A DNA stretch of 64,000 nt from Pseudomonadota bacterium (lineage in GTDB: Bacteria > Pseudomonadota > Alphaproteobacteria > UBA1280 > RI-95): NCBI GenBank assembly GCA_016125375.1, contig WGLU01000007.1, forward strand, positions 68,499-132,498, written 5' to 3'. Both the position numbers and the translations under genes were made by a program. Below the pieces are notes generated by a model that saw nothing but the letters and a program-made list of their open reading frames with translations, searched no databases and was not told the origin of the DNA. Shown here piece by piece: positions 13,678 through 32,858 of the stretch (the first letter of the stretch is position 1; each line of letters begins with the position of its first letter).

Positions 13678-14376
13678 ATGAGTGTTGTTACACTGCCTAT
13701 CGTGGAAAAGCACGACAAAATACGTCGATCGGCTGCCATTGCTACCCAATTGAAAGAGATGATTCTGGACGGTGTCCTTAAAGCAGGCGACCGTTTGCCG
13801 ACCGAGGAACAGTTGTGCCGCCACTTCGGCGTGTCACGCACCACACTGCGGGAATCTGTACAAATGCTGCGTGTTTCAGGCCTGCTGGAGGTTACTCCGG
13901 GCCGTGGCAGCTTTGTAAGGGTGCCTGACCTGCGCAAGATTATGGACGACGTTGCCGTATTCGGCTGCGCCGGTGGTATGGATGATGCCGAAGTCCAGAA
14001 CCTGATTGCCCTGCTGCAACACGAAATGGTGCGCCGTGCCTGCCGCGCACCTGCCGTTCGCAAAAGCAGCCTGACGGATTACCCGATCAGCCGATTGGCA
14101 CCGGTATCCGAGAACGAACGCGCCGAGCGTGCCTGGCTGCTGGCGATTGCTTCGGTCTCCGGTTACAAGGTTGGCCGTATGCTGCTGGAAGTGCTGTTGA
14201 CCATGACCCGCCGTCAGCGCCAACTGCGCCTGGCAAAAGCGGGTGAGGTACAGCGCCTGATGGAAGTGCAACTGCGCCTGAACGCCGCAATTATTGACGG
14301 TAACGCCGATATGGCCGGGCGGGTGATGGAAGCGTATCTGCAAAGCTGCAAGGATGGTACAACACTGAGTGCCTAG
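13678..14376 (+). CDS. GntR-family transcriptional regulator (FadR/FCD subfamily)
   Basis: N-terminal winged HTH: LPTEEQLCRHFGVSRTTLRESVQMLRVSGLLEVTPGRGSFV. All-helical C-terminal FCD-like domain. The ORF track start at 13585 is a GTG; the ATG at 13678 was chosen. Confidence 0.8.
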   Translation: MSVVTLPIVEKHDKIRRSAAIATQLKEMILDGVLKAGDRLPTEEQLCRHFGVSRTTLRESVQMLRVSGLLEVTPGRGSFVRVPDLRKIMDDVAVFGCAGGMDDAEVQNLIALLQHEMVRRACRAPAVRKSSLTDYPISRLAPVSENERAERAWLLAIASVSGYKVGRMLLEVLLTMTRRQRQLRLAKAGEVQRLMEVQLRLNAAIIDGNADMAGRVMEAYLQSCKDGTTLSA

Positions 14377-14921
14377 GCCTGTGCTGCCTCGTCCTTGAGG
14401 TACTGTTTAAGGACCCGGTAGGCGTCGTTGATCCTTTTGATCTTGTCGGCGCTTTCCGGGTCTTTATTGCGGTCGGGGTGATGCTCTTTGGCCAATTTAT
14501 GATAAACCTTGCGCACCTTGGCACTGTTCAGTGGCGGTGTAACACCCAGTTCTGCACAGGCGTCGCGCACATCGGGTGGCAGGTTGCTCGTTTCCGGCTT
14601 GGCTTCGGCAGGTTTGTGGTGCAGCTCCTCAAAAAAGCCGTATGGGTCCTCCGTGGCGCCAAAAGCTGCGGTCGCACCGACAAAAGACTTTGTGCCCAGT
14701 CCCATTTTCCATGTCGGACGGTTCCACGTCGCACCCCCATGCTGCATGGAGAAGATCTCCTGCGAGGAGAAACCGTTCAGCCCGTTCCAACGGGAATTGA
14801 ACTCCTTGATGTGTTTCAAGCAGTAGAATTGACGGTCATAAATATTGCGCGGGTCCCGCGGGGCAGGGTATTCACCTGGCTCCGTACATTCGGGATGTGC
14901 GCAGGGATGCACATCTGTCAT
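14373..14921 (-). CDS. J-domain protein with C-terminal DnaJ domain and N-terminal Cys/His-rich segment
   Basis: C-terminus KVRKVYHKLAKEHHPDRNKD...INDAYRVLK carries the HPD tripeptide of J domains. The N-terminus has CAHPEC...C..H. The start lies 4 nt after the prepilin peptidase stop. Confidence 0.7.
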   Translation of the reverse strand: MTDVHPCAHPECTEPGEYPAPRDPRNIYDRQFYCLKHIKEFNSRWNGLNGFSSQEIFSMQHGGATWNRPTWKMGLGTKSFVGATAAFGATEDPYGFFEELHHKPAEAKPETSNLPPDVRDACAELGVTPPLNSAKVRKVYHKLAKEHHPDRNKDPESADKIKRINDAYRVLKQYLKDEAAQA

Positions 14922-14924
14922 GCC

Positions 14925-15554
14925 CTACCATATAGACTGATAAAGCCGCAGAAACAAGAGTTGAACACCATCGGGGTAGAGTGCCATAAGCCAAATGGCG
15001 AGGCCCAATGCGGGACCGTAGGGGGTGTTGCCATCCTTTTGTGCGAAGGCGGCAAGGCCAAAACCGAAAAAAGCCGCCAGCGTAAGGGCCGGGAAAAAGC
15101 CGCCCAAGCCAGCCCATACGCCAAGTGCAGCCAGCATTTTAATATCCCCACCGCCAATATGCTCGGTGATGGTATCACCTTTGAGCTTAGCCACCACAAA
15201 AGAAACACTGAAACCAAAACACAGGCCAAGTGCGCCACCGGCAAAAGGGTCATACCAGTCGCCGTGGTTGGTGAACGTGAATGGGCTGAGCAGGCCCAGT
15301 AGCAGAATGGGGAAAGTATAAATATCCAGCAGCAGGAAATGGCTCAGGTCAATAGCCATGGTCCGTGCCAGCAGTGCAGCGAGCAGCGTGATATAAACAA
15401 TCGAGACGATGTTGAGTTCAGGAAGCCTGGGTGCGGCCATCGCGAGCAGTACAAGGAACAGTGCAACTGTACAAAGTGCGCGAAAACGCTGCGGCACACG
15501 CCCGTCAAGGGGATGTGCCGCAGCAATATGGCGCGCCTCAAACGACCGGAGCAT
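14925..15554 (-). CDS. Prepilin peptidase (A24 family, short TadV/CpaA-like form without N-terminal zinc-finger or methyltransferase extension)
   Basis: The second catalytic-Asp motif IGGGDIKMLAALGVWAG matches A24 GGGDVKLL. The first Asp lies in AIDLSHFLLLD. Polytopic membrane protein, 209 aa. Confidence 0.75.
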   Translation of the reverse strand: MLRSFEARHIAAAHPLDGRVPQRFRALCTVALFLVLLAMAAPRLPELNIVSIVYITLLAALLARTMAIDLSHFLLLDIYTFPILLLGLLSPFTFTNHGDWYDPFAGGALGLCFGFSVSFVVAKLKGDTITEHIGGGDIKMLAALGVWAGLGGFFPALTLAAFFGFGLAAFAQKDGNTPYGPALGLAIWLMALYPDGVQLLFLRLYQSIW

Positions 15555-15562
15555 GCCCGGGC

Positions 15563-16651
15563 TTAGCCGCAGGTCGCGGGGTTGGTCGGCGTGGTGCAGA
15601 ACTCAATGCTGGTCGTAAACGGCGCCTGACCAACGTTGGTTACGTTCGAGTTGTAGCGCAATCGGCGGTTCCATGGGTCAACTGCGTAGGTACGCGGCAG
15701 ACTCAGCAGCTCCATCAGGGCTTCCATGCTGTTCGTTGCCGATGCGGCGGCACCCACATCGTATGTCGCCTGAACACCCAAGCTGGCTGCTGTACGCAGG
15801 TCCGGCACGTAGTAAACGTCCAGGTTCTGGTTTTCCAGGCTGGAACGCGGGTAGTAGTTGGCGCGGCCTTCCTCGCCGATATCGTAGGTGTTATCGTCGG
15901 CCCGGCTGCTGCTGTTAATGTAGTTCGGGTTGGCCTGGTTGACGTCTTGCACATCCATCCAGTCGCAGCGGTCGTCGTTCGCCGGGTCCTGAGCCGCGTT
16001 GCCCGCCATGAACAGGGCCAGTTTGTTTGAGCAGTAGTTCTGGTTTTCTGTAAACAGGCGTGCCTCATAGGCAGAGAGGGCTTTGGTAATTTCCTCGCCC
16101 TGGCGGCGGAACACTTTTACACGGGACTTCTCGATGTCCAGGGTGGAGAATTTGCGGCCAATATCGTCATTGGCGGGTTGCCAGGCACCGTAGTCGGCAG
16201 CACAGGAACCGTTCGTCAGGAAGTCGCCTGTGCCAGAGTCGTTTGTGCCATCTTTACCGGGTGAATAAATGGCAAAGTACTGAACGGAGGGTACGACAAT
16301 ACCGTCGATGCTGACGTTGGTCTCGGTGCAGGTGTCGTAGACCCAGGCAGAACCCCAGGCATCAGCATTCAGGGTCTGGTTTTCTACCAGACCTGTATCA
16401 AAAACGAGCGTCTGGACGTTTGCCCACGAAGTGGGGACAGTTGTGATGCCTGTGGATATGTAATAGGTCTCGATACCTTTTGTAATCAGCTCTGCGGCAA
16501 CATCGGTGTTTTCCACTTTTGTGCGTTCGATACGCGACATTTGCATGCCGCCGAGCGAAACCGCCAGAATACTGGCGACAACCAGCGCAATACGCGCATC
16601 CATACTGAACATGGCGCCGTGCTGGTTACGAAGAATGTTGGTCGTTCTCAT
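15563..16651 (-). CDS. Large pilin-like protein (362 aa) with prepilin-type leader MRTTNILRNQHG/AMFSMDARIALVVASILAV and N/T/Y/D-rich C-terminal domain ending in a Cys pair
   Basis: The leader and hydrophobic helix parallel the 22935..23546 pilin (shared G-AMFxxDAR[IV]AL). C-terminal ...CTTPTNPATCG is disulfide-loop-like. The start was taken at the Met at 16651 (GGGGG SD 10 nt upstream), not the ORF-track start at 16702. Confidence 0.55.
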   Translation of the reverse strand: MRTTNILRNQHGAMFSMDARIALVVASILAVSLGGMQMSRIERTKVENTDVAAELITKGIETYYISTGITTVPTSWANVQTLVFDTGLVENQTLNADAWGSAWVYDTCTETNVSIDGIVVPSVQYFAIYSPGKDGTNDSGTGDFLTNGSCAADYGAWQPANDDIGRKFSTLDIEKSRVKVFRRQGEEITKALSAYEARLFTENQNYCSNKLALFMAGNAAQDPANDDRCDWMDVQDVNQANPNYINSSSRADDNTYDIGEEGRANYYPRSSLENQNLDVYYVPDLRTAASLGVQATYDVGAAASATNSMEALMELLSLPRTYAVDPWNRRLRYNSNVTNVGQAPFTTSIEFCTTPTNPATCG

Positions 16652-16701
16652 GGTGTTAATACCCCCGTATCTTACCATTTTGTTGTGCGTGCCCCGTGTC
16701 A

Positions 16702-17487
16702 TTACTTCGCACCCGCAGCTGCCGAGGCTTCGCGCATATCAATAATATCTGTATAGGTTTCTGACCACGGTGCCGGTGTTGTAAATGATATTGTGGCTGT
16801 TTGGGATGTTGCGCGGGCATAGGTAAAGTTATTGCCCCAGAAGTCCCGTTGCGTGTACACGTCCCGGATATCCGTATTGAACGTGCCGTTTGTCGGCAGG
16901 TGGTGCGTGCCGGACTCCGCCGTACCATCTACCATGGCGCGGCGCCACCAGTCGTAAACAAAGTCCGTCAGGGCAGCCATGTTACCCTTGGAAATTTCAA
17001 GCTGGCGGGCCCGTATGACCGATGTGTCGATAACAGCGACATCGTCGCGTTTGGTAATATCGCTCGTGAGCATGTTGGCATCTGTAGATGTAGAGGCATC
17101 TGCGCGGATAAATGCATCGTCAGAGTTGGAAATCATGACCCGTTGGCGACCTGTCGCGTTATCCATCGCTGTAGAGTTGATGACGATGGCCTGACCGTTG
17201 CGCGTGTCCAGACTTGCAGAGGTGGAATTGCGGATACGGGTTGCATCAATGCCATTATTGAAGTTGGCTGCTGTTTCCATGAGCAGAGCGTTTTCTACAC
17301 CGTCTTTAAGCTCTTGCAGCTGTTTCTTTTTGGCTTCGGCCTGCTGGGCCTCGATTTTGGCCAGTTCGCGTTCGGCCTGTTTGCGCATCGCAGTGGAGAA
17401 AACAGCCAGACCAAGCACCAAACCGATCATGAACGGGGAAAAGTTACCCCGTTGGCATTTGAGCGATTTGGCAATCCTTGCCAGCAT
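16702..17487 (-). CDS. Pseudopilin/minor-pilin-like protein (261 aa), leader MLARIAKSLKCQRG/NFSPFMIGLVLGLAVFSTAM followed by coiled-coil
   Basis: The leader ends in Q-R-G like the other two pilin-like genes. A 20-residue hydrophobic helix is followed by a Lys/Glu-rich helix, then a Ser/Thr/Asn-rich domain. Confidence 0.5.
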   Translation of the reverse strand: MLARIAKSLKCQRGNFSPFMIGLVLGLAVFSTAMRKQAERELAKIEAQQAEAKKKQLQELKDGVENALLMETAANFNNGIDATRIRNSTSASLDTRNGQAIVINSTAMDNATGRQRVMISNSDDAFIRADASTSTDANMLTSDITKRDDVAVIDTSVIRARQLEISKGNMAALTDFVYDWWRRAMVDGTAESGTHHLPTNGTFNTDIRDVYTQRDFWGNNFTYARATSQTATISFTTPAPWSETYTDIIDMREASAAAGAK

Positions 17488-17496
17488 AGCCGTACG

Positions 17497-18294
17497 TCAT
17501 ACCCCCATACGCAGTTCGTAATCGCGACCTGCAACTGACACCACAACAGCGCGGTGCTTAATTTCCTTTACTGTCACACTAATATTATAGCGGCCGTCAT
17601 TAGTTTTTGACTTACGTAGCTGGTCTTTCTTCTCGCGGTACTCGCGCAGGGCCTCGTCCCGGTATTCCTGATATTGCTGGTAGGCGGTTTCGGATACGCT
17701 GTCCGGTTCCGGCATCTGGGCATAGATGGTTTCTTCGACCTTGTCGGTGCTATCGAGCTTGACGTTTACAGGCAGCAGGAAACGGTCACCCGGAGAGAAC
17801 TTCTTGTTGTTAATCATCACATAAGGCGAGGGGGCTGCGATAACCGATTGCAGGACAATACGGCCAAGGTCTTTGGTAAAGTCATAATCGCTGAAATCGA
17901 ACACCTGACCTTCATGCGCCGTATTGATGATGGTGTGCAGGTAATTACGGAATTCATCCAGGTTCAACTGGTCAGAAGCGGTCAGGTCCGGTAACTGCGG
18001 CAGGTTGATATTAATTTGCTCTGCAGGGGCCTCCTGCTGTTCTTTTTCCGTTGCAAACGGATCAATAAGGCCGCGTTGCAGCAAGGATGTAATGGTTGGC
18101 AGCAGGTCGGCACCCTCTTTCGCACGGCCGCGGCCCGCGCGCTTTTGCACCTGCATTTCCTGAATCAGATTGTCGCGTTTAAAGTCAAATTCGGGCTGAC
18201 CACGGAACGTTATCGGCCACTGCTGCGCCAAAGCAGACGTAGCGGCAAACGCAACCAGAACAAACGCAAAAAGTGGTAGCTTAACTTGGTGCAT
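17497..18294 (-). CDS. Secreted/periplasmic operon protein of unknown family (signal peptide MHQVKLPLFAFVLVAFAATSALAQQ)
   Basis: Cleavable Sec-type signal. The Glu/Gln-rich mature protein sits in the middle of the pilus-like operon. The start was chosen at the Met at 18294. Confidence 0.5.
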   Translation of the reverse strand: MHQVKLPLFAFVLVAFAATSALAQQWPITFRGQPEFDFKRDNLIQEMQVQKRAGRGRAKEGADLLPTITSLLQRGLIDPFATEKEQQEAPAEQININLPQLPDLTASDQLNLDEFRNYLHTIINTAHEGQVFDFSDYDFTKDLGRIVLQSVIAAPSPYVMINNKKFSPGDRFLLPVNVKLDSTDKVEETIYAQMPEPDSVSETAYQQYQEYRDEALREYREKKDQLRKSKTNDGRYNISVTVKEIKHRAVVVSVAGRDYELRMGV

Positions 18295-18796
18295 TGACGG
18301 TCTCCGGGTTGTACACATAAACAAAGCCTTTAATCTGAATCATGCGCTGGTTGGGCTCAGGCTCGGCACCGGAGGGAAGGGACAGGCAGCCGAAGCACGC
18401 ACTGAAAAGCACAAAGCCGTTCATGTTCTCCAGTTTGTTCACCAGGCGCAGGCCGGTCACAAAGTCTGTCAGGCCCGTAATCTCGAAGTTGTGGCGGTAG
18501 AAAAAGCGGTTGTCCTGAGAGTTTGGGTCCGCTTCGCTGGTATATTTGAACTCAACGTTTTTGGGCAGCTCAATTGCACGTTCAATGTTCAGCTTCTGGT
18601 CTTCGCCTTTTTTAAGGGTGACTTCCTTGATGGCTTCAATTTTTTTGGCAAACTTTCCGGCTTCCTGCTTGTCGCGGATTGCCTGAGCCAGCTGATTACG
18701 CTGAACTTTGATGCCGTTAAGATTTTCCATGAACTGGAACCCGCCAACAATAAGGGCAAAGGCGGAGAGAATCAGACCAATCGTGAACTGAATCAT
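18281..18796 (-). CDS. N-terminally membrane-anchored operon protein (GspM/PilO-like topology, 171 aa)
   Basis: A single N-terminal TM helix (IQFTIGLILSAFALIVGGF) is followed by a coiled-coil and a beta-rich C-terminus. The topology resembles assembly-platform components. There is no sequence-family match. Confidence 0.45.
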   Translation of the reverse strand: MIQFTIGLILSAFALIVGGFQFMENLNGIKVQRNQLAQAIRDKQEAGKFAKKIEAIKEVTLKKGEDQKLNIERAIELPKNVEFKYTSEADPNSQDNRFFYRHNFEITGLTDFVTGLRLVNKLENMNGFVLFSACFGCLSLPSGAEPEPNQRMIQIKGFVYVYNPETVNAPS

Positions 18797-19941
18797 TTTT
18801 GTTCTCCTTCCTCTTTAGGCTCTGCCTTGGCGGCCTGGCCGGGTTTCATGGTTTCGTTAATCATGCGCTGTTCCTGGGTATGCTTGCGAATTTGTTCGTC
18901 CAGCGTGCTCAGCACAACCAGCCCTTCCAATGTCAGGTCTTCGCGGTTGACAGGGGGTTTACGGATTTCCGCCATGGTCACACTCTGCTTCAGCAGTTCT
19001 TTCGCTATCGGTTCCTGTTCCAGATAGCTCTTGTAGGCTTTCGGCATAGAGGTAATGGTGACCAGCGCAATATCACTTGGCTGGTTTGGTGTGGGGTTTT
19101 CTACTTTAAAGTCGTGCACTTTAAAGTCAGCATTATGCACGGCCATCGCGATATCTTTCAGCACGGTAGAGTACAGATAGCGGTAGCGCATAAACTGTTC
19201 CTGCTCCTGCACACGGCTGATAATCTGGCGGAAGTTGTCGCCAAAGCCGCTTTCCTGTCGGGCAATGGCGACCTGACGGCGGAGGTTGATGACCTCCTGC
19301 TCCTGATCTGTGGTCAGGTAGTACATACCCCCAGCAATGCCCATGCCGATCAAAAGAACATGGAAACCATACCGCTCCTGAATGGTGGGTTTGTTCAACC
19401 ACATGTTCGTATCGAGGGGGACAGACTCCAGTGGCTCAAAAGTAGCATCCAGTTCGGATGTTTTCTCGTTCTTCCAGTTTGTGTAAACCGTTTTCTTGGT
19501 TGTTTTTGGGTACGCCTTGAAAACCTGCTGCAGGTCTTTAACCCATGTTTCTTCAGAGGTGGGCTGGATATAACTGTCGTTAATGTCCCAGTGGAAGATA
19601 ACGTCGGCAGCAATCATGGCATTCAGAGTGTTCGGCGGTGTTTTGCTGGCGCGACAAAAGTCAAACAACGCAATATTCCGCCCATGGTGCATGAGCAGCA
19701 TCTGGTCTTCTTCATGGTCTGTGGGGCTTAAGGCGGCGGCAGGGTCAACATCCGCACCGTCAATATCGCGCGGTGCAAAAAAGCCGAGCATCAGGTTGCG
19801 GCGGCTTTGATCGTCTGTCAGGTCTTTCCAGTTGTCGGCAAACAGCACCTCACCGTTTTCAGGGTAGTACTCTACGCGGTTCAAGCCCACAAAGCAGCGG
19901 TTCTTGAAGCGGGTAATGTTGACTTTTGGTGCTGTAGCCAT
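18793..19941 (-). CDS. Bitopic operon protein (382 aa) with ~190-aa cytoplasmic domain, one central TM helix and periplasmic domain (GspL/PilM-N-like architecture)
   Basis: The central hydrophobic segment HVLLIGMGIAGGMYYLTT splits two soluble domains. It lies immediately downstream of the GspF-like gene, as GspL does in T2SS operons. Confidence 0.45.
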   Translation of the reverse strand: MATAPKVNITRFKNRCFVGLNRVEYYPENGEVLFADNWKDLTDDQSRRNLMLGFFAPRDIDGADVDPAAALSPTDHEEDQMLLMHHGRNIALFDFCRASKTPPNTLNAMIAADVIFHWDINDSYIQPTSEETWVKDLQQVFKAYPKTTKKTVYTNWKNEKTSELDATFEPLESVPLDTNMWLNKPTIQERYGFHVLLIGMGIAGGMYYLTTDQEQEVINLRRQVAIARQESGFGDNFRQIISRVQEQEQFMRYRYLYSTVLKDIAMAVHNADFKVHDFKVENPTPNQPSDIALVTITSMPKAYKSYLEQEPIAKELLKQSVTMAEIRKPPVNREDLTLEGLVVLSTLDEQIRKHTQEQRMINETMKPGQAAKAEPKEEGEQK

Positions 19942-19950
19942 GGGTTGTCC

Positions 19951-21048
19951 CTAGTTTTGCGCAAACACAATTGAAAGCATTTCCATCAACATGACGGCAC
20001 CGCCGGCAATCCAGAGGAAGGCTGAAGTGACGCCAACGAATCTGCTGTTGGCATCCGTCAGAAGGCGGTCAAGAATGGTGTAGGCGTGGTCCATGCCCTC
20101 CACCATCACGTCGTTGATGCCGTCCGTGTTACCGGCATAGTTCTCGGACACTTTTACAGGTGTCACGGCAATAGGCGGGAAGCCGGCCTTGTCCATTGCA
20201 TCAGACATTTGCCCACCGGCAGTAATCACCTGGTTGAACATGTCAATCCGTCGGCGGAGCACAACGTTGGTGGCTAACGCTTCCATAATCGGAATCATCT
20301 GCTTCGGTTTTACACCGCTTCGGATAAGGTGCGGAAAGTACAGCAACATGTTTGTATAAACTTTGTAGGAGGTGTACTTGCCAAGCAGGGGCACTTTCAG
20401 CAGGTAAAAGTCCAGCCAAAAGCGCCCTTGTGTGGTGCGGATCATGGAGTAGGACACAATAATAAAAATGACAAGGAAAGCGGCAATAAAGTGCCAGTGC
20501 GCAGCTACGCCGTGGGTAAAGTTCATCACGAACTCTGACACCATGTTCGGGTCCTTGCCCTGTGCCTTACGCATCTGCATCAGGTTGGGCAGGGTGTTCA
20601 GACCTGTGTTGAAAATAGACGCAAACGACAGCAGCAGCATGGCAATAGGCGTGAAAAGCTCGGCAAAGCCTGCCCGTTGCGATTCCATTTTCTTATCTTC
20701 CAGCTTACGCAGAACCGAGAAGGCCTCGTACATGTTGTTGGAGGCCTCGCCAGCCATAATCGCGGCACGGTGAATGTCGGTAAACAGGATGTATTCGATC
20801 TCGGCGGCCTTGCTCAGGCTTTTGCCTTGCGCCACCTTCTGGGCGATAGCCAGGAGGCCGGAAGAAATATCGTCTTTGCCTTCGGTTTTGAAGGCTTTTG
20901 CAACGGCACGCAGACCGGACTCCGAGGTCTGGCCCGACCGGAGCATCTGTGCCATAAGGAAGAACAGCCTTTCCCGGTCCGCCATGGAAACATCGCGGAC
21001 TTTGGGCCCAAGGCCGCTACTCCCGGTGAATATTTTCGAGATCTGCAC
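19951..21048 (-). CDS. Type II secretion / type IV pilus inner-membrane platform protein (GspF/PilC family)
   Basis: 365 aa with three TM helices. It has two repeated T2SSF cytoplasmic domains (LRSGQTSESGLRAVAKAF..., LIRSGVKPKQMIPIMEALATNV...). Confidence 0.85.
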   Translation of the reverse strand: MQISKIFTGSSGLGPKVRDVSMADRERLFFLMAQMLRSGQTSESGLRAVAKAFKTEGKDDISSGLLAIAQKVAQGKSLSKAAEIEYILFTDIHRAAIMAGEASNNMYEAFSVLRKLEDKKMESQRAGFAELFTPIAMLLLSFASIFNTGLNTLPNLMQMRKAQGKDPNMVSEFVMNFTHGVAAHWHFIAAFLVIFIIVSYSMIRTTQGRFWLDFYLLKVPLLGKYTSYKVYTNMLLYFPHLIRSGVKPKQMIPIMEALATNVVLRRRIDMFNQVITAGGQMSDAMDKAGFPPIAVTPVKVSENYAGNTDGINDVMVEGMDHAYTILDRLLTDANSRFVGVTSAFLWIAGGAVMLMEMLSIVFAQN

Positions 21049-22732
21049 TGAAGAAACGCTCCAGTTCTTCTACACTTGTGATACCACTTTTGACGTGGCG
21101 CAAACCGTTACCCAGCATATCGACCATACTGCCGCTGTTGAGTGCCTGTTCACGTACCACATCAATCCAGTCCGGGCGCAGTCGGTTGCCCGACCAAACG
21201 TTCCGGGTTACTTCCTTCCGCCACAGCTCCAGCACTTCCTCCAGCGCGATACGTCCAATGTATCCGCGGTAGTGGCAGTGCTCGCAGCCGTTGTGGTTCT
21301 GTTTGTAAATGACGTCGCCTTCGGCGAACTTGACGATTTTGGGGCGTACTGCCTTCATGCCTTCGGCGAACTGTCCGTGCAGTTCAATCGGCACCTTGCA
21401 TTTGGGGCACAGGCGACGGACCAGACGCTGCGCGACAATACCACGCACGTTGGAGAAGATCTGTTCTGCGGGCACGCCCCGCTGCAGCAGACGGTCAAGA
21501 CACATGAACGTATCGTTGGCGTGCAGGGTTGTAATAACAAGGTGACCAAGGTTACCGGCGTCGATACAACGGCGGGTATCCTCGGGGCTACGCACCTCAC
21601 CGATGTACAGCACATCGGGGTCCAGACCCAGTGCGGCATACATGAAGGATTCAAGGTTCAGACCTGCACTCAGGTCCTCTTCGGTCTGGATAACGTTATC
21701 CATCCGTTCCTCGATCTGTTTCTCGTAAGAAATCACGTTCTGGCCGGGACGCTGACCGCGACGGATGGTCATACGGGCGGCGGTTGATTTACCCGCACCG
21801 GTCGGGCCGCAGAAGATGATACACCCTTCCTCGAACTTCATCAGCTGGTCGAGCTTTTTAAAGGTTTGCTCGCTGTAGCCGAAATCCTCCAGCTTGCCTT
21901 CAAACGGGCGCATGTAACGCATGGCCAGTTTGGCGGTTCCTTCCAGAGAGATAGGCTGCGTCGTGTAACGAATGTCCACACGTTCACGGCTTGAAATCTC
22001 GAACGTCATACGGCCGTAGAGAGGCTTTTTATAGTTCTCTGCACGTACACCGGCAATGTGGCGCAGACGGCCGAGGACGCGTTCGTACACCTCGATCGGC
22101 AGGGCAACCAGTTCTTCCAGTTCGCCGTCAAATCGGGCCATAACTGTGGGTTTACGGTTCAGGATCTCGATGTGCAAGTCGGATGCGCCGTTTTTGTAGG
22201 CGGTACGGATAATCTCGTCCGTGAGCGAGATGATGGCATCGTCGTTACCGGCGTTAATCTGTGCATAAGCGTTTTCCACAAGGAACTTGAGGGAGTGACC
22301 CTCGCGTTTGCTCATCCGTTCGATGGCGTCTTCGATAGATTTGGCCGGTGCCCAGATGAACTCGTGCTTGTTTTTGCGGTTACGCAGCACGATTTCGCTC
22401 ACCAGGCGTTTGTTCGGCAAGTCGGCAGCAACCCATGTCACCGTGCCGCGGCCCAGCTCGATAGGGCAGGCGGTGTAGTGGAGCATAAACTCCCGGGTGA
22501 TGCCTTCAATCTGGTGGGGGGTGATTTTACCCATCTCGGCAGCGGATTTAACCGGAAAATCATAGGCGATGGCGCGGTAGCGGGACTGTTGTGCCTCGGT
22601 CAACTTACCGGATTTACCAAGTGCTTCGATAAGCGCATCCGGGTTTTTCTGCACAGTAACAGGGAGCGACTGCAAGTCGCTGATGGTGACCACCTGATCA
22701 CTAATCATCAGGTCAACAATATCCATCCCCAT
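21017..22732 (-). CDS. Type II secretion / type IV pilus assembly ATPase (GspE/PilB family, with tetracysteine zinc motif)
   Basis: N-terminal T2SSE_N-like region, ASDLHIE, Walker A FCGPTGAGKST, Asp box GEVRSPED, His box TTLHAN, and CPKC...CEHC zinc site. It overlaps the GspF start by 32 nt. Confidence 0.9.
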   Translation of the reverse strand: MGMDIVDLMISDQVVTISDLQSLPVTVQKNPDALIEALGKSGKLTEAQQSRYRAIAYDFPVKSAAEMGKITPHQIEGITREFMLHYTACPIELGRGTVTWVAADLPNKRLVSEIVLRNRKNKHEFIWAPAKSIEDAIERMSKREGHSLKFLVENAYAQINAGNDDAIISLTDEIIRTAYKNGASDLHIEILNRKPTVMARFDGELEELVALPIEVYERVLGRLRHIAGVRAENYKKPLYGRMTFEISSRERVDIRYTTQPISLEGTAKLAMRYMRPFEGKLEDFGYSEQTFKKLDQLMKFEEGCIIFCGPTGAGKSTAARMTIRRGQRPGQNVISYEKQIEERMDNVIQTEEDLSAGLNLESFMYAALGLDPDVLYIGEVRSPEDTRRCIDAGNLGHLVITTLHANDTFMCLDRLLQRGVPAEQIFSNVRGIVAQRLVRRLCPKCKVPIELHGQFAEGMKAVRPKIVKFAEGDVIYKQNHNGCEHCHYRGYIGRIALEEVLELWRKEVTRNVWSGNRLRPDWIDVVREQALNSGSMVDMLGNGLRHVKSGITSVEELERFFSADLENIHRE

Positions 22733-22934
22733 GTCCTCCTGCGGCGCCCGTCTTATTACGTTGTTTTGCGCCCCCGATAAACCGCTTTATCAAACGTGCC
22801 TAAAGGTTTGTATTTTTTATCCTAACACAGCTTATCGGCGGGCTGTAACCCTTTTTCAAATCGCAAAACACAAGGCCACTGCCGGCGTACCGGCAGTGGC
22901 CTGGTTTGTAACGTCAGGCTGTTGCCAATACGTC

Positions 22935-23546
22935 TTAGCTACGTGTACGCGACAGCAGGTAAGCAACTGTCTCGTTGTCACCTGGCGAGCAGGTGCTGTC
23001 GTAACGGAAGTTACCGGTGTTACCAGTGCCGCCGGTACCATCGATTTTCTTCTCCAAATCGCCAGCAATCTCGCACGGTACGGACGACAAGGTCAGCCAC
23101 TTGCCGCTGATACCGGCAGAGGTGTTGATGGCGGACGGTGTCCAGTTGGCATCAATACGACCGTCACGCAGGGCGAACACGCCGTAGCCGGCAGTGTGCG
23201 TGTTGGTGGCGATTGTAATGTAGGGCCCGTTCCAGTTCAGGGTGCTGTTTGCGTCAGCATACAGGTTCTGGAAGCCCACACCGGTACCGGTGGTGTTCGG
23301 GGCGGTGGAACTGGTGTCTTGCGGCACGTCCACACCCGTGTCGAACACGAAGTTGATGTAGCCTTTGGAAATGTTGTCAAACTCGGTCAGTACGCCGGTA
23401 ACCCGGGTATCACGAACCGCCGAGAACACAGCCACACCGGCAATCGCCGAGAGGCCTGCGAAAATGGCCAGAGCCACACGGGCGTCCAGACCAAACATCG
23501 CGCCGCGCTGTGAGCGCAGCTCTTGAGATACGTTCTTCATAAACAT
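22935..23546 (-). CDS. Major pilin-like protein (first gene of the operon), leader MFMKNVSQELRSQRG/AMFGLDARVALAIFAGLSAIAGV, Gly/Thr/Asn-rich globular domain with C-terminal Cys pair
   Basis: Class-III-signal-like organisation: a charged leader ending in G, then a ~21-aa hydrophobic helix. Two Cys near the C-terminus (VPCE...DSTCSPG). The AAGGAG SD favours the start at 23546. Confidence 0.6.
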   Translation of the reverse strand: MFMKNVSQELRSQRGAMFGLDARVALAIFAGLSAIAGVAVFSAVRDTRVTGVLTEFDNISKGYINFVFDTGVDVPQDTSSTAPNTTGTGVGFQNLYADANSTLNWNGPYITIATNTHTAGYGVFALRDGRIDANWTPSAINTSAGISGKWLTLSSVPCEIAGDLEKKIDGTGGTGNTGNFRYDSTCSPGDNETVAYLLSRTRS

Positions 23547-23719
23547 GGTCATGCTCCTTACATCGGACCGTTATTCTGGGCCTGTTGAGTCAGGCTTAAT
23601 ATTTTTTTCTAGGTATTCCCCATACCACTACTTTATAGCAAGGGTTGCAAGTCAAGCAGCTGAACGTGGCTGACAGGACAAATATATCCGAACACCTGTT
23701 GCCTTTTTGCAATAATAAC

Positions 23720-23746
23720 ATAAAAAACCCGCCGAAGCGGGTTTTC
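23720..23746 (-). terminator. Rho-independent terminator of the cytochrome c gene (AAAACCCGC-CGAA-GCGGGTTTT + T-run on minus strand)
   Basis: A 9-bp stem 22 nt downstream of the stop at 23768. The A6 run at 23722-23727 supplies the T-tail on the minus strand. Confidence 0.75.
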
Positions 23747-23767: not shown

Positions 23768-24313
23768 TTAGTCTTTCAGCGTTTTCAGGTACGCGATGAT
23801 GTGGGCACGCTCTTCCGGCTTGCGGATAGACAGCGACATTTTGGTGCCTGGCATATAGTCTTTCGGGCTGGCCAGGAACTCAAAAATCATCTCGGGCTTC
23901 CAAGTTTCGCCAGCTTCGTGTTTCTTGGCGAAAGATGCTGTGTACGAGAAGTCATCGCGGTGTGCAACCTTGGAACCAACAACACCCCACAGGTTAGGAC
24001 CGGTTTTGTTAGGGCCGCCTTTTTCAAAGGTGTGGCAGGCTTTGCATTTGTTGGCGATTTTGGCGCCAATGGCAGGGTCGCCGGCAACCAGCAGGGCGTC
24101 AACATCAACGGGTTTATCGTCATGCTTTGCGGCAGCGCCTTCGCCGGCTTCGGCAGTTTCAGGTGCAAGTGCGGCCAGCACAGGATTCATTTCGGCCTTA
24201 CCGTGCTCGGGCAGCAGGTGGCCGGTCGTGGCAAAATGGCCGGAGAAATAAACAATTGCAAACAGGTCCGCGGCCAGCACGGTCACAATAAACACACGCA
24301 TGAGGTTTTTCAT
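23768..24313 (-). CDS. Membrane-anchored mono-haem cytochrome c (CycM-like)
   Basis: CKACH haem-binding motif and N-terminal TM anchor (LMRVFIVTVLAADLFAIVYF). Start at MKNLMRV (24313) with a GGGGG SD. Confidence 0.8.
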   Translation of the reverse strand: MKNLMRVFIVTVLAADLFAIVYFSGHFATTGHLLPEHGKAEMNPVLAALAPETAEAGEGAAAKHDDKPVDVDALLVAGDPAIGAKIANKCKACHTFEKGGPNKTGPNLWGVVGSKVAHRDDFSYTASFAKKHEAGETWKPEMIFEFLASPKDYMPGTKMSLSIRKPEERAHIIAYLKTLKD

Positions 24314-24448
24314 CAGGTACCCCCCGGGGCATAATAGATTTATTTTGCTTTTGGTCCGTCTCTTAACACGTGCGTTAAGAGCAACTGCCAAAATATAGGC
24401 GCAAGGTAGATTGTTCGTCAACCGTTTTACCATTAGCATGGTACGGGT

Positions 24449-25282
24449 ATGAAGAACGCGCCAACGCACATCATCATGGGAAGAATTGTCGGCCTCGCTG
24501 CGGGGTTGTTTATGTTCGCCGACCTTGTTCCCGCCGTTTTATGCATTATTGTCGGGCTGGCGTGTGACATTCTGTATGCCAGATATATTTTCCCGCTGCG
24601 TTACCGGGACATCCTTCTGCAGGATTACAGTGTGGCCGTGATCGAGCTGTGCGCAAAAATGTGCAAGTCTGACGGTGTGGTGACAAAGGAAGAAATAGAA
24701 GCCTTCCGGCGCAGGCTGATGATTGATGCGCAGGACATGACCATCGTGTCGGCCATTTTTAACAAAGCCAAAAAGAGTGCCCTGGGTTTTGAGGTGCAGG
24801 CGGCAAAAATCCACAGCATTTTACGGACGAGTCCGCAGCAGTTGCTGGCGATCATCGAAGTGCTGTACGAGATTGCCCTTTCGGACAATTTTGTGGCCCC
24901 GGGTGAGCGTAACTTTATCATCAAAGTGGGGCAGGTGTTTGGCTTGACGCCGCTGCAACTGAACGAGATAGAACGCCGCCTTGCTGTTGGCGCCCGCCAG
25001 ACCTCGGAAGGGGCGCGCAATTATGAGCAGTCGTTCGAGCAGGAAGAGGGGAACAACCCGTACCAGAAGTCGGCCATCAGCGGTAAGGACCCCCTCAAGA
25101 TTCTGGGCGTGAAAGACGGTGCCAGCAAGGAAGAGGTAAAGCGTGCGTACCGTAAGCTGGTCGCCAAATACCACCCGGATAAGGTCCGCGGCGATGGTGC
25201 CAGCCAGAAAGAGATCGACCGCGCGGAAGAGAAAATGACCGAGCTGAATGCCGCCTATGCGGCGTTAATGAAGCGCCTGTAG
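24449..25282 (+). CDS. djlA: Co-chaperone DjlA-like protein (N-terminal TM, TerB-like middle domain, C-terminal J domain)
   Basis: The TM helix at the N-terminus and the C-terminal ILGVKDGASKEEVKRAYRKLVAKYHPDK... (HPD) match the DjlA architecture. Confidence 0.7.
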   Translation: MKNAPTHIIMGRIVGLAAGLFMFADLVPAVLCIIVGLACDILYARYIFPLRYRDILLQDYSVAVIELCAKMCKSDGVVTKEEIEAFRRRLMIDAQDMTIVSAIFNKAKKSALGFEVQAAKIHSILRTSPQQLLAIIEVLYEIALSDNFVAPGERNFIIKVGQVFGLTPLQLNEIERRLAVGARQTSEGARNYEQSFEQEEGNNPYQKSAISGKDPLKILGVKDGASKEEVKRAYRKLVAKYHPDKVRGDGASQKEIDRAEEKMTELNAAYAALMKRL

Positions 25283-28119: not shown

Positions 28120-29541
28120 CTATCCTAACAGCTTGAACAGCAAACGGCTAATCCTGCGGGTGGTCGGGGCGTAGAGCGCATCCTTATAGTAGGCGGATGC
28201 GGCACGTTTATGCACGTCACTGCGTGTGGGGTAGGCGACGATGAGGTCGTTCATCCGGCGGATGGGCAGACCGAACTGGATAAAAGGCGCCCATGCGTGA
28301 ATCAGCTCACCGGCCTGCGTGCCCACCAGCGTGGCACCCAGTACCTTGCCGCTCTTGGTTGTGATGACTTTGAGCATGCCGTTGGTGTCCTTTTCTGCCT
28401 GTGCGCGGTCCACCTGTGCCAGTGGCACGGTGACCGTACGTACACTGTCCCCGTGGGTGGCGCGGGCTTGCGCCTCGGTCATGCCGATGCCCGCAAGCTC
28501 GGGCGACGTATAGGTCACCCACGGCACGGCGCGGTAGTCGGCCTTGGTTGTCAGGCTGCCGAAAAGGCTCCGGCGGATAACAAGCCCGGCCTGATACCCC
28601 GCCATATGTGTAAACTGGTATGGTCCGGTCACATCGCCAATGGCAAAAATATGTTTCTTGTTTGTCTGCATGGCTTTATTGGTGGGGATACCTTTGGCTG
28701 TGTGGTCGATACCCGCGGCATCCAGTCCCAGATTTTCCACATTTGGCGCACGTCCGGCGGCTACCAGCAGGTGACTGCCATCAACCTGTGTGCCATCCGA
28801 GAGGGTGAGGGTGATGCTGCCCGCTCTGCCCTTGACGGCGGTTATGCCCTTACCTTCATGCAGGGTTATGCCATCGGACAGCAGTTGGCTGCGCACCACC
28901 TCCGCCAGTTCGGGATCGTCCTTTCCGAGGATGCGGGGAGCCGCCTCTATAATCGTCACCTTGCTGCCAAGTCGCCTGAAGGCCTGACCCAGTTCTGCTC
29001 CAATCGGGCCGCCGCCCATGACCAGCAGGTGTTTGGGCTGCTCGGTGAGGGAGAAAACAGTTTCGTTGGTGAGATAGGGAACGTTCGCAAGTCCTTCTAT
29101 CGGTGGAACAAAAGCACGTGCGCCCGTGGCGATGACGATGCGCCGCCCGGTCAGGGTGCGGGTGGGGGTGACGATGGTATGGGCGTCCTTGAGCTGACCA
29201 TGTTCGCGGATGACGGTAACACCCAGCCCGCTGAAACGCTCTTCCGAGTCATGGGGGGCGATGGCGGCAATAACGGCATGCACATGTGCCATGACCTTGG
29301 CAAAATCCACCTGAACATCCGCGCGGATGCCGAGCTTGTCCAGATGGGCTGCGGCGTAGGCCTTATGGGCGGCAGCCAACAGGGCCTTGGAGGGAACACA
29401 CCCGTAGTTCAGGCAGTCGCCGCCCATCTCCGCCCCTTCGAGCAGGGCCGTTTTGTACCCCAGGCCCGCCGCAACCGCAGCCACGACAAGGCCGGCACTG
29501 CCAGCGCCCAGAATCACCAGATCAAAGTGTTCGGTTTTCAT
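28120..29541 (-). CDS. FAD-dependent pyridine nucleotide-disulfide oxidoreductase (dihydrolipoamide dehydrogenase / mercuric reductase-like, class I)
   Basis: N-terminal FAD-binding DLVILGAGSAG. Redox-active disulfide GGDCLNYGCVPSK. NAD-binding LLVMGGGPIGAE. C-terminal dimerisation domain. Start at MKTEHFD (29541). Confidence 0.8.
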   Translation of the reverse strand: MKTEHFDLVILGAGSAGLVVAAVAAGLGYKTALLEGAEMGGDCLNYGCVPSKALLAAAHKAYAAAHLDKLGIRADVQVDFAKVMAHVHAVIAAIAPHDSEERFSGLGVTVIREHGQLKDAHTIVTPTRTLTGRRIVIATGARAFVPPIEGLANVPYLTNETVFSLTEQPKHLLVMGGGPIGAELGQAFRRLGSKVTIIEAAPRILGKDDPELAEVVRSQLLSDGITLHEGKGITAVKGRAGSITLTLSDGTQVDGSHLLVAAGRAPNVENLGLDAAGIDHTAKGIPTNKAMQTNKKHIFAIGDVTGPYQFTHMAGYQAGLVIRRSLFGSLTTKADYRAVPWVTYTSPELAGIGMTEAQARATHGDSVRTVTVPLAQVDRAQAEKDTNGMLKVITTKSGKVLGATLVGTQAGELIHAWAPFIQFGLPIRRMNDLIVAYPTRSDVHKRAASAYYKDALYAPTTRRISRLLFKLLG

Positions 29542-29545
29542 GGTG

Positions 29546-30247
29546 TTACGCCTTTTTCTTGAAGCTGTTGTAGGCTGTAGGAACAAGGGAGAGCACACCC
29601 AGCAAGGTCAGCGCCAGCAAGGTCTGGCCGGAGATGATGTCCGACAGGGTGTCGATATCCCCCAGTGTGCGGCCGATGTTCACATACACCGCACTGCCCG
29701 GCAGGATGCCGATGAGCGTGGTCCATGCAAAGGTGCGCAAAGGTACGGGAAAAAGCGCGGGCAGGATGTTCACCACAAAAAACGGGAACAACGGCACAAG
29801 ACGCAGGAAGAGCAGGAAGCCGACCTGATTATCACGAATCTGGTTGGAAAAACGTCCTTCCATACCGGCAACCTTTTTACGCAGGCCGTCTCCGAAGGCG
29901 CTGCGCGCGGCAACAAAAACCAGTGTGGCGCCAAGAGTGGCGGCAATCACCACCAGTCCTGTCCCCAGCCACAGGCCGAACACAAACCCGCCCAGAAGCG
30001 TGAGCAGCGATGCCACAGGCAAGGAAAAGCCGACTGCCGCCGCGTAGGCCAGCACAAAGGCGCCGCCTGCCGTAACGGGGTTTGTGCGGGCAAAGGTTTG
30101 CAGCTCGTCGCGGTGGTTTTTCAGGTTTTCCAGCGTCAGCAGGTGGTGCAGGCCCAGGGCATAGGCAGCGGCAAAACCGGCAAGCAGCAGGGCGGGCAGG
30201 GCGAATCGGCGCAGAGGGGCGGGCATGGGTGGTTTCCTTTCTCGCAT
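29546..30247 (-). CDS. DedA / TVP38 / TMEM64 family membrane protein
   Basis: Multi-TM protein with a glycine-rich re-entrant signature (LLTLLGGFVFGLWLGTGLVV). It lies 4 nt upstream of the oxidoreductase gene. Confidence 0.75.
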   Translation of the reverse strand: MRERKPPMPAPLRRFALPALLLAGFAAAYALGLHHLLTLENLKNHRDELQTFARTNPVTAGGAFVLAYAAAVGFSLPVASLLTLLGGFVFGLWLGTGLVVIAATLGATLVFVAARSAFGDGLRKKVAGMEGRFSNQIRDNQVGFLLFLRLVPLFPFFVVNILPALFPVPLRTFAWTTLIGILPGSAVYVNIGRTLGDIDTLSDIISGQTLLALTLLGVLSLVPTAYNSFKKKA

Positions 30248-31208: not shown

Positions 31209-32858
31209 ATGCAAAACCCCGTCGACAAAAAGCCCGCCGATAATCGCAATCTGATGATTGCGCTGCTGCTTTCCGCGCTGGTTCTGGTCGGATACGACTA
31301 CCTGCGCCTGCGGTTCAGCCCGCCTGCGGAACAAACGCAGGAAACGGTCCAGCAGGCCCCTGCGGCAGCCGCCCCCGGTGCCCCGACATTGAACGGAGAT
31401 TTGTCTGCGGTATCGTCGCTGAGCGCCACGCCTGCGGGCGATGTGCCGCACATCGGCATCAAAAGCAGCACCTTTGAAGGCACGTTGAGCCTGAAGGGCG
31501 GCCGTATCGACAGCCTGAAGCTACCCGATTACAAGGTATCGCTGAAAGACCAGACGCCGGTAACCATGTTCACCACCACAGGCGAACGTGTGGAGTTTTT
31601 TGAAGCCGGTTGGCTGAGTGATGTAACAGCTGCCCCGAACAGCGACACAGTATGGTCGGCAGGGGAGTCGGATGTTCTGAACAGCCTGACACCGGATACC
31701 CCCGTGACACTGACATGGGATAACGGCAAAGGGCAGGTGTTCCAGCGCAGCTACATACTGGATGCTGGCAGCCACACCATCCGCATCATCGACGGCGTAA
31801 CCAACCAGGCCGAACATCCCGTGCGCCTTGCCCACTATGCCCAGCTGCACCGCGCCGGGTACAACAAGCGCGAGAGCACATTCTATAATTTCAATGGGTT
31901 GCAGGCATTTTTTGACAGCAAGCACCTGACCCACAGCTACGAAGACATTGCCAAAAAAGGCCCCTTCCGCGAGAGTGGTCGTCAGGGCTGGGTAGGCGTG
32001 AGCGACCCGTACTTCCTGTCGGCGCTTCTGCCGGACCAGACCAATACGCAAACAGCGGTGTTCCGGAATACCAAAACTGCTGGTGCCGATTTCTACACCC
32101 TCGACCTGCAAGGCCCTGCTGTTGTGGTGGAGCCGGGCCAGTATGTGGAAAATGCCTACCGTCTGTACGTCGGGCCGAAAAAGTTTAGCTTCCTGTCCGC
32201 TGAGAAGGTGGGTCTGGATCAGGTTATCGACTACGGTTGGTACCACATCATCGCCAAGATGTTCTTTGACGCCCTCAAGGGCCTGCACAGTGTTGTGGGT
32301 AACTGGGGTGTGTCCATTATCATCATGACCTTTATCCTGAAACTGGTCATGTTCCCGCTGGCGACCAAGAGCTACCGCTCCATGAGCGAGATGAAAAAGC
32401 TCCAGCCGAAAATGGAACAGCTGCGCGAGCGCTATGGCGAAGACCGCGAGAAACTGGCGCAGGAAATGATGGCTCTGTACCGTCATCACCGCATCAACCC
32501 CATGAGCGGGTGCTGGCCGATGCTGATCCAGATTCCGATTTTCTTTGCCTTCTACAAGGTGATTCTCATCTCGTTCGAGTTCCGTCAGGCGCCGTTTGTG
32601 GGCTGGATTCATGACTTGTCAGTATCTGACCCGTACTTTGTACTGCCGATTCTGATGGGTCTGACCATGATTGTGCAGCAGCGCCTCAACCCGCCTGCCG
32701 CCGACCCCGTACAGCAGAAGGTGCTGCAATTCATGCCGGTGATGTTCACCTTCATGTTCCTGTGGTTCCCGGCTGGTCTGGTACTGTACTGGACGACCAA
32801 CAGCATCCTGTCGGTCAGCCAGCAGTGGTGGATTATGCGCCGGATGGGTGTGAAGTAA
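31209..32858 (+). CDS. yidC: Membrane protein insertase YidC
   Basis: N-terminal TM, large periplasmic domain and 5-TM core with MFPLATKSYRSMSEMKKLQPKM...NPMSGCWPMLIQIPIFFAFY. Confidence 0.95.
   Translation: MQNPVDKKPADNRNLMIALLLSALVLVGYDYLRLRFSPPAEQTQETVQQAPAAAAPGAPTLNGDLSAVSSLSATPAGDVPHIGIKSSTFEGTLSLKGGRIDSLKLPDYKVSLKDQTPVTMFTTTGERVEFFEAGWLSDVTAAPNSDTVWSAGESDVLNSLTPDTPVTLTWDNGKGQVFQRSYILDAGSHTIRIIDGVTNQAEHPVRLAHYAQLHRAGYNKRESTFYNFNGLQAFFDSKHLTHSYEDIAKKGPFRESGRQGWVGVSDPYFLSALLPDQTNTQTAVFRNTKTAGADFYTLDLQGPAVVVEPGQYVENAYRLYVGPKKFSFLSAEKVGLDQVIDYGWYHIIAKMFFDALKGLHSVVGNWGVSIIIMTFILKLVMFPLATKSYRSMSEMKKLQPKMEQLRERYGEDREKLAQEMMALYRHHRINPMSGCWPMLIQIPIFFAFYKVILISFEFRQAPFVGWIHDLSVSDPYFVLPILMGLTMIVQQRLNPPAADPVQQKVLQFMPVMFTFMFLWFPAGLVLYWTTNSILSVSQQWWIMRRMGVK

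Follow-up and report, generated by a model that had tools for sequence, protein, structure and literature searches.

The class III signal of type IV pilins is described as a hydrophilic leader that ends in a critical Gly and is cut after it, followed by about 21 hydrophobic residues interrupted by Glu5 (PMC4471445). The corresponding motif, G|F-x-x-x-E, underlies essentially all bacterial pilin annotation (N_methyl/TIGR02532, PilFind), and it also underlies models of how subunits are recognised, how they are extracted from the membrane and how the filament core is neutralised. We analysed a 64-kb stretch of contig WGLU01000007.1 (assembly GCA_016125375.1, Alphaproteobacteria; hereafter the window), which contains on its minus strand a cluster of ten genes, arranged as a compact row at 14373-23546, with three pilin-like proteins that depart from this motif. 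Judging from their sequences, the three appear to be of pilin type in fold and signal, with A-M-F-G-L-D-A-R replacing the near-universal bacterial G|F-x-x-x-E. We consider it quite probable that they are the subunits (one major, two minor) of a self-contained machine that builds type IV filaments and is related to the type II secretion system (T2SS) and the type IVa pilus (T4aP). Their genes, and the signal elements of the major subunit, are located as follows:

22935..23546, minus strand: major pilin-like subunit, 203 aa (205 aa from the alternative start at 23552)
23469..23504, minus strand: variant class III signal core of the major subunit, G17-A18-M19-F20-G21-L22-D23-A24-R25-V26-A27-L28 (205-aa numbering)
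23415..23498, minus strand: hydrophobic alpha1-N segment M19-V46 of the major subunit, predicted to form the membrane anchor and the core helix of the filament, with D23 and R25 as its sole interruptions
16702..17487, minus strand: minor-pilin-like protein, 261 aa
15563..16651 (362 aa, ATG 16651) or 15563..16702 (379 aa), minus strand: large minor-pilin-like protein

The three N-termini that the initial annotation of this stretch had quoted are all present on the minus strand as it described them, each followed by a membrane helix. In the major subunit, the leader MFMKNVSQELRSQRG is followed by AMFGLDARVALAIF (...SQRG-AMFGLDARVAL). An AAGGAG ribosome-binding site 7 nt upstream favours ATG 23546 over ATG 23552, and the 203-aa protein consists of a 15-residue leader ending in R-G, the stretch A-M-F-G-L-D-A-R-V-A-L, a hydrophobic helix of about 28 residues and a globular domain resembling that of GspG, in which the motifs WNGPY and D..IDG..GNFR occur. 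The Kyte-Doolittle peak lies at residues 19-47, and an AlphaFold2 (AF2) model of the 205-aa translation (predicted local distance difference test score 86, predicted template modelling score 0.77) places a long helix, Met19-72, on a four-stranded sheet. In this prediction the major subunit has the two elements that define the pilin fold, namely about 21 hydrophobic residues as alpha1-N and a following alpha-beta globular domain.

The large minor-pilin-like protein has closely the same signal (...NQHG-AMFSMDARIALVV, reading N-Q-H-G-A-M-F-S-M-D-A-R-I-A-L) and a C-terminal motif DPWNRRLRYNS. Its orthologues, which occur in one or two copies per syntenic locus, carry G-A-[MV]-F-[SG]-[ML]-D-[AT]-R behind leaders of 8-16 residues, and because of these leader lengths the shorter start (ATG 16651, 362 aa) would be favoured over the 379-aa form. 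The 261-aa protein begins ...CQRG-NFSPFMIGLVLG (Q-R-G-N-F-S-P-F-M-I-G), continues with a hydrophobic helix lacking any acidic residue and ends in a pilin-type motif, DFWGNNFTY, that recurs in orthologues as DFWGNxFTY. In its orthologues the signal reads [KR]-G-x-[FV]-S-P-F-[ML]-[FI]-G, where x is N, A or G, again with no acidic residue, and Q12, G14, S17, P18, F19 and G22 are invariant in the alignment. By hhalign, its N-terminal 100 residues match the major-pilin family over the leader, the membrane helix and the following helix (88% probability, E = 2.9e-6). The leaders of the three proteins (MFMKNVSQELRSQRG, MRTTNILRNQHG and MLARIAKSLKCQRG) all end in Gly. One orthologue of the 261-aa protein (L002:15823-17040) is extended at its C-terminus by a domain of about 130 residues (…DDWYLPSRNELSTLY…YWTSTE…), which by eye looks like a DUF1566/Lcl-type adhesin module and would make this a modular minor pilin.

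We compared these N-termini with the N_methyl class. They share with it a leader ending in a conserved Gly. Glu+5, however, is replaced by Asp, at +6 if the cut falls after Gly or at +5 if it falls after Ala, with no acidic residue in the 261-aa protein; the position after Gly, which is Phe, Met, Leu or Val in the class, is Ala here (N, A or G in the 261-aa orthologues). None of the three proteins matched the pilin-signal models of Pfam and NCBIfam (N_methyl PF07963, TIGR02532) at E <= 1. The earlier assertion that the pattern fits no known class held up in this comparison, since besides the lack of an N_methyl or NCBIfam pilin match the signal is neither G|FxxxE, nor the Tad G|xxxxEY, nor archaeal. 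The accompanying statement that canonical pilins need Phe or Met at +1 was too strong: in mutagenesis only Gly-1 was critical for processing, while Glu5 was dispensable for processing and needed for assembly (PMC4471445). Nine engineered N-termini (Ala deleted, D->E, R->L and combinations) also gave no N_methyl match at E <= 10, so that this probe of the register was uninformative.

The conservation of the signal was assessed across homologues. A word-indexed search returned 95 homologous clusters, all from metagenomes or metagenome-assembled genomes (MAGs), and G/A-A-M-F-G-L-D-A-R was present in 95/95. In an alignment of 33 sequences with a mean column identity of only 30%, residues A18, M19, F20, G21, L22, D23, A24, R25, A27 and L28 were invariant. 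Since the word-indexed search, like a genome scan that used the pattern AMFGLDAR itself, is biased towards the motif, we removed the N-terminal 46 residues, built a profile from the globular domain only and ran it against 1.84 billion cluster representatives. This search retrieved 1272 cluster representatives at E <= 1e-3, 644 of them at E <= 1e-10, giving a family of at least 1272 clusters at 50% identity. The motif was present in 125 of the 139 new top representatives obtained in this way. The remaining 14 comprised truncated fragments, mis-called starts, two proteins with G-A-L-F-G-L-D-A-R, one with Arg changed to Cys, one carrying a Sec-type signal and one of 720 aa; G-F-T-L-I-E occurred in none of the 139. 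Among the roughly 130 top hits with intact N-termini, Asp was present in all and Arg in 129. The conservation of the motif is far beyond chance, and the proposal that homologues would keep AMFxxDAR, which had been named as a point on which the earlier reading could fail, is borne out. The preference for Asp over Glu is likewise upheld: with a search pattern admitting only D or E, the acidic residue in membrane-helix context was Asp in 222/222 proteins and 125/125 open reading frames (ORFs) of the loci, and Glu in none.

The leader is far less constrained than the motif. Its terminal Gly was present at 138 of 141 family sites, and the residue preceding it was Lys at 98 and Arg at 19 (together 117/141, 83%), with the residue before that variable. 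Of the Q-[RH]-G context put forward initially, only the Gly is thus conserved, Q-[RH] being local to this genome. The leader length of 12-15 residues given there was also too narrow, as leaders are 15-17 residues long in this genome and range from 4 residues (MKKG) to about 45 across the family. Natural K-A-A-M-F variants show that the Gly can be replaced by Ala, and the Met of the motif changes solely to Leu or Val. Three database entries (P0141 at L079:285-300, P0134 and P0215) are called from the internal Met of M-F-G-L-D-A-R. Leaderless subunits of this kind would argue that Met is the mature N-terminus, an interpretation we rejected because the DNA of P0141 has an upstream ATG with a GGAG box, yielding M-K-K-G-A-M-F; the three entries are gene-calling errors. 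The resulting 4-residue leader, M-K-K-G, is shorter than the usually quoted 6-26 residues.

At the other extreme, seven proteins (P0059, P0065, P0066, P0070, P0089, P0149 and P0231) have leaders of about 45 residues that contain a second, degenerate copy of the motif, K-K-G-A-M-F-G-L-E/D-x-R-A-L-K-K-Q-F-G-E-L-F-L-A-R, with no membrane helix after it. Glu was found only in such degenerate, non-membrane copies inside long leaders. Possible explanations for the second copy are a decoy, a regulatory site and a remnant of duplication. Two proteins carry the globular domain behind other N-termini. In P0101 (720 aa), three stretches match the pilin globular domain behind an N-terminus M-K-K-L-K-G-F-S-G-V, and P0104 (178 aa) has the same domain behind an ordinary Sec-type signal peptide.

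Paralogues within single genomes provided a further measure of constraint. We counted at least 49 motif ORFs in MarineProteo1_Bin2 and at least 47 in UBA12223 (roughly 230-250 kb retrieved), often in tandem arrays. Expanded arrays of ORFs of about 190 aa lie at L023:8915-10719, L032:280-2231, L046:694-2477 and L058:5223-8049, and also in L060 and L067; array members have leaders of 5-7 residues (M-x-x-K-K-G). An identical 30-residue N-terminus, GAMFGLDARIALAIFGALSVISGAALYSAI, is shared by at least 36 and at least 33 paralogues of these two MAGs, respectively. The 90-nt segments that code for it are nevertheless all distinct, with a mean of about 18 synonymous differences in 90 bases, and the remainder of the same paralogues is only about 33% identical. 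Because the protein segment is identical while its coding DNA differs synonymously and the rest has diverged, the 30-residue module is under very strong purifying selection at the protein level. Two other sources of identical N-termini were considered and rejected: gene conversion, since synonymous sites are near saturation, and recent duplication, since the 90-nt coding sequences all differ and the rest of the proteins is about 33% identical.

The remaining genes of the cluster, all in the same orientation, are the following:

21017..22732, minus strand: assembly ATPase of the PilB/GspE clade, 571 aa
19951..21048, minus strand: GspF/PilC-type inner-membrane platform protein, 365 aa
18793..19941, minus strand: GspL-like (or PilM-PilN-like) bitopic assembly protein, 382 aa
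18281..18796, minus strand: bitopic protein, 171 aa
17497..18324, minus strand: exported or periplasmic protein, 275 aa
14925..15554, minus strand: short A24 (prepilin-type) aspartyl peptidase, 209 aa
14373..14921, minus strand: DnaJ-domain protein with a Cys/His-rich N-terminus

The ATPase carries the Pfam T2SSE domain (8.5e-67) and an MshEN N-domain. Among NCBIfam models it scored 232.8 bits against PilB and 219.6 bits against GspE, and its E-value was 7.7e-69 for PilB versus 1.6e-5 for the TadA type. Against PDB sequences the matches were PilB (4e-48), PilF (6e-46), EpsE (2e-45), BfpD (8e-26) and PilT (1e-15). By these sequence comparisons the ATPase stands equally near PilB and GspE, with BfpD and PilT much more distant. 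The platform protein matched Pfam T2SSF (2.7e-14) and NCBIfam GspF (3e-23), and in the PDB PilC (3e-7) and GspF (2e-4). For the 382-aa protein, an actin-like cytoplasmic domain, a long membrane/coiled-coil helix and a ferredoxin-like periplasmic domain are predicted, and it matches the periplasmic domains of PulL, XcpY and EpsL. The 171-aa protein has a membrane helix at residues 1-24 followed by a periplasmic domain, and it has syntenic orthologues. It matched no Pfam or NCBIfam family; from its position and topology we infer a GspM/PilO-like candidate. The 275-aa protein, also syntenic, has a hydrophobic segment at residues 13-34 and a Pfam T2SSB match over residues 249-271, the C-terminal strand region, at E = 0.0014, below the curated cutoff, and is possibly a connector of the GspC/PilP/GspB type.

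The peptidase has Peptidase_A24 as its sole Pfam match (1.2e-9, residues 57-167), with no DiS_P_DiS or methyltransferase domain detected by Pfam and no Cys pairs in its N-terminal 55 residues, in agreement with its initial description as a short A24 enzyme without the methyltransferase-associated region. The candidate catalytic residues are D69 (15348-15350) and D137 within G-G-G-D-I-K (15144-15146), and both Asp motifs are invariant in six orthologues. These were taken from syntenic loci; a word-indexed search gave 3 hits, saturated by low-complexity membrane words, and phmmer against the PDB gave no match. With two Asp, a G-x-G-D motif and about six hydrophobic segments, the 209-aa protein has the features of an A24 peptidase, but not those of the bifunctional PilD/GspO type (A24A).

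By its motor and its GspL-like protein, the system groups with the T2SS/T4aP branch among type IV filaments. In predicted fold and in size the subunit is closest to type IVb pilins and GspG, and the peptidase resembles the TadV or archaeal type. Several features recall the T2SS. Weak Pfam T2SSG (PF08334) matches were found in 10/33 relatives, with a WNGPY or DPWG-type motif in the globular domain; the platform protein scores best against GspF, the 382-aa protein has the GspL architecture, and the genes form one operon-like cluster. The 261-aa minor subunit, which lacks an acidic residue, is comparable to the GspK pseudopilin, which has none either. The differences are that the signal is G-A-M-F-G-L-D-A-R and not G|F-T-L-x-E, that the subunit has about 190 aa versus about 135 aa for GspG, that there are three pilin-like genes and not five pseudopilins, that neither a GspD secretin nor a recognisable GspC was found in the cluster, in the window's large ORFs or in the flanks, and that the peptidase lacks the methyltransferase domain of GspO/PilD. 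Within the sequence available, the system does not qualify as a T2SS on two counts, the secretin and the pseudopilin number.

Type IVb pilins (CofA, TcpA, PilS) are similar in mature size (about 190 aa), in having Met, Leu or Val at the helix start and in having few minor pilins. They differ in that Gly-1 directly precedes Met or Leu, in their Glu5 and in the ATPase, since ours lies far from BfpD (8e-26 versus about 1e-46 for PilB/GspE); in addition, type IVb peptidases N-methylate their subunit. Tad/Flp systems (TadV/CpaA, G|xxxxEY) likewise have a dedicated short peptidase without a methyltransferase domain and a small residue, often Ala, after Gly. Their ATPase, platform protein and subunits (in size as well as in fold) are unlike those of the present system, their acidic residue sits elsewhere, and the E-Y pair by which a Tad/Flp signal is recognised is absent here. 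Archaeal class III substrates of FlaK/PibD share the [K/R]-G before the cut, the lack of a requirement for Glu5 and peptidases free of a methyltransferase domain (in part PMC4471445). The machine in our cluster is bacterial, however, with a PilB/GspE ATPase and a GspL-like protein, and its pilin domain is GspG-like. We know of no archaeal counterpart of the invariant Asp-x-Arg.

These comparisons suggest the following mechanism. The PilB/GspE-clade ATPase, the GspF/PilC platform and the GspL-like protein, together with another two envelope proteins and a dedicated peptidase, would make up the machine. Its substrates would be recognised by a lineage signal, a basic leader of 4-17 residues ending in [K/R]-G followed by A-M-F-G-L-D-A-R-[IV]-A-L-A-I-F-G and a helix of about 28 residues. 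Prepilins would enter the inner membrane with the leader on the cytoplasmic side, where the co-encoded short A24 peptidase would remove it, most likely by cutting after the invariant Gly, so that the mature protein would begin with Ala (Asn in the 261-aa protein). N-methylation would not take place, a step proposed only because the peptidase has no methyltransferase domain. The subunits would then be extracted by the ATPase and platform and assembled into a polymer via the conserved helix. In the filament, Asp and Arg, spaced i and i+2 on roughly opposite faces of the helix, would together replace the charge-neutralising role of Glu5 and the N-terminal amine, probably by pairing between subunits in the filament core. 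The fixation of Asp together with Arg suggests such a coupled function. Asp is chemically acceptable at this place, since the E5D variant of TcpB is nearly functional, the substitution for Glu5 causing little loss (PMC5207764).

Several observations weigh against this account. The major pilin of the window has no Pfam pilin match whatever, and the family profile run against PDB sequences found no solved pilin, its best match, Cry6Aa, being spurious. Neither the large ORFs of the window nor the 10-kb flanks of the syntenic loci yielded a secretin. Finally, the helix register is the canonical one of pilins if Met and not Ala is the first mature residue, for Met+1 puts the acidic residue at +5, together with Gly14 and Leu16, in the canonical positions. 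Asp5, Ile8, Ala11, Ile12, Gly14, Leu16 and Ile19 then coincide with PAK PilA.

This last point favours a cut one residue later, after the near-invariant Ala (G-A|M-F-G-L-D). The system and its substrates would then be the same, but the class III signal would come close to the canonical one and resemble type IVb, with Ala-1, Met+1, Asp+5 in place of Glu, an extra Arg+7 and Gly14. We regard this as a credible but rather doubtful alternative. The AF2 helix begins at Met19, the variation of the Met position to Leu or Val only resembles that at +1 of type IVb pilins, and the natural K-A-A-M-F variants speak in the same direction. Archaeal peptidases tolerate Ala at -1. A cut after Ala would leave Gly at -2 and Lys or Arg at -3, which is without precedent and at odds with leaders described as ending in a critical Gly (PMC4471445), and it would leave the 261-aa protein and its orthologues with Asn, Ala or Gly at -1, so that one peptidase would have to accept Asn. 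Cleavage after Gly, G|A-M-F-G-L-D-A-R with Ala+1, Asp+6 and Arg+8, seems to us reasonably likely. We favour it because 83% of the family sites have [K/R]-G ahead of the cut and leaders follow the rule of ending in Gly (PMC4471445), and because the 261-aa orthologues have N, A or G after an invariant Gly, Asn being a poor -1 residue. In either register, three features have no place in any described bacterial class: the exclusive use of Asp, the invariant Arg two residues further on in the membrane helix and the lack of a methyltransferase domain in the peptidase.

It is very unlikely that the N-terminus is instead an uncleaved signal-anchor or oligomerisation helix, or a substrate of Sec and signal peptidase I, with the A24 peptidase serving other substrates. 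P0104, with its Sec-type signal in place of the motif, indicates that the globular domain can apparently be exported by another route. In the family at large, a charged leader precedes the hydrophobic segment, no small-x-small site follows the helix, and the helix is continuous with pilin alpha1 in the AF2 model. The peptidase gene is syntenic with the pilin-like genes in every complete locus, a scan of all six frames of the 64 kb revealed neither a canonical G[FM]T[LI][ILV]E site nor any AMFxxDAR site beyond the two known, and the 77 related loci (about 0.8 Mb) contain no canonical prepilin. The conservation of [K/R]-G right before the motif would also be left unexplained. A Tad/Flp-type (type IVc) system, to which the short TadV/CpaA-like peptidase without a methyltransferase domain and the Ala after Gly, common in Flp and TadE signals, might point, is most improbable, given a 571-aa ATPase of the PilB/GspE clade with MshEN and a TadA-type E-value of only 1.6e-5 versus 7.7e-69 for PilB, a single GspF-type platform protein, a GspL-like protein, subunits of 190-360 aa with GspG-like globular domains and not Flp pilins of 50-80 aa, and no E-Y pair at +5/+6.

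The proteins would constitute a large type IV pilin family of uncultured Alphaproteobacteria-related bacteria whose N-terminal signal is unannotated and whose function is wholly a matter of prediction. With at least 1272 clusters and up to about 50 paralogues per genome, it keeps the pilin fold and a T2SS/T4P-type motor, while its N-terminal chemistry is different and more rigidly conserved. Because of this difference, NCBI and JGI annotate family members mostly as hypothetical, and the systems escape surveys based on hidden Markov models (HMMs). The major subunit would go unnoticed in survey pipelines that depend on finding a pilin by HMM (PMC6668835). The string AMFGLDAR was not found in the searchable literature, and the MarineProteo1 papers that we searched do not discuss pili. 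More speculatively, and with clear reservations, the cluster may represent an unrecognised subclass of type IV filaments that occurs only in uncultured lineages related to Alphaproteobacteria, some of them deep-branching and MarineProteo1 among them. In this subclass an obligatory Asp-x-Arg would replace the chemistry of Glu5 and the N-terminal amine, the peptidase would be dedicated and methyltransferase-less, and the 30-residue N-terminal module would serve as a sorting and assembly tag for at least 50 divergent subunits per genome. If so, the product would be either a filament of great variability or an export route that serves many 'pilin-tagged' cargo domains. The family offers a natural experiment on the roles of Glu5 and N-methylation, on the determinants of prepilin-peptidase specificity and on how deep-branching alphaproteobacterial lineages make surface filaments or secrete proteins, and a motif-specific HMM would immediately improve the annotation of MAGs.

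Two hairpins bracket the gene of the major subunit:

22873..22902, minus strand: terminator-like hairpin with a 13-bp stem (10 G-C pairs), between the pilin stop codon and the ATPase gene
23723-23746, minus strand: second terminator-like hairpin, upstream of the major pilin gene

Because there are hairpins on both sides, the major pilin gene looks like a transcription unit of its own, upstream of the assembly genes. A strong terminator right after the 203-aa gene fits what is expected for a highly expressed major subunit. A riboswitch or other known RNA upstream of the gene was considered and rejected, as an Rfam scan of the 170-nt leader region gave no match near threshold.

Synteny of the whole gene row, with the DnaJ-domain gene, extends to L001-L004, L011 and, in part, L050, which are six independent MAG loci. 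DnaJ-domain orthologues (40-46% identical; Pfam DnaJ 3.1e-13) lie directly 3' of the peptidase gene in L001-L004 and L011, and the protein encoded at 14373-14921 may be a chaperone for the system or merely a conserved neighbour. Just upstream of the pilin gene, the window encodes a TerB-DnaJ fusion protein and a membrane-anchored cytochrome c (24449-25282, plus strand, and 23768-24469, minus strand), so that, counting 14373-14921, two DnaJ-domain genes flank the cluster. A few kb away lie yidC and a pyridine-nucleotide-disulphide oxidoreductase gene (28120-29598, minus strand, and 31209-32858, plus strand). Since this housekeeping neighbourhood is kept both in the window and in distant relatives (L001:4931-6595, L002:3253-7468, L011:3845-5410 and L008:4728-6410), the pilus locus seems to be an old, vertically inherited feature of the chromosome and not a mobile island.

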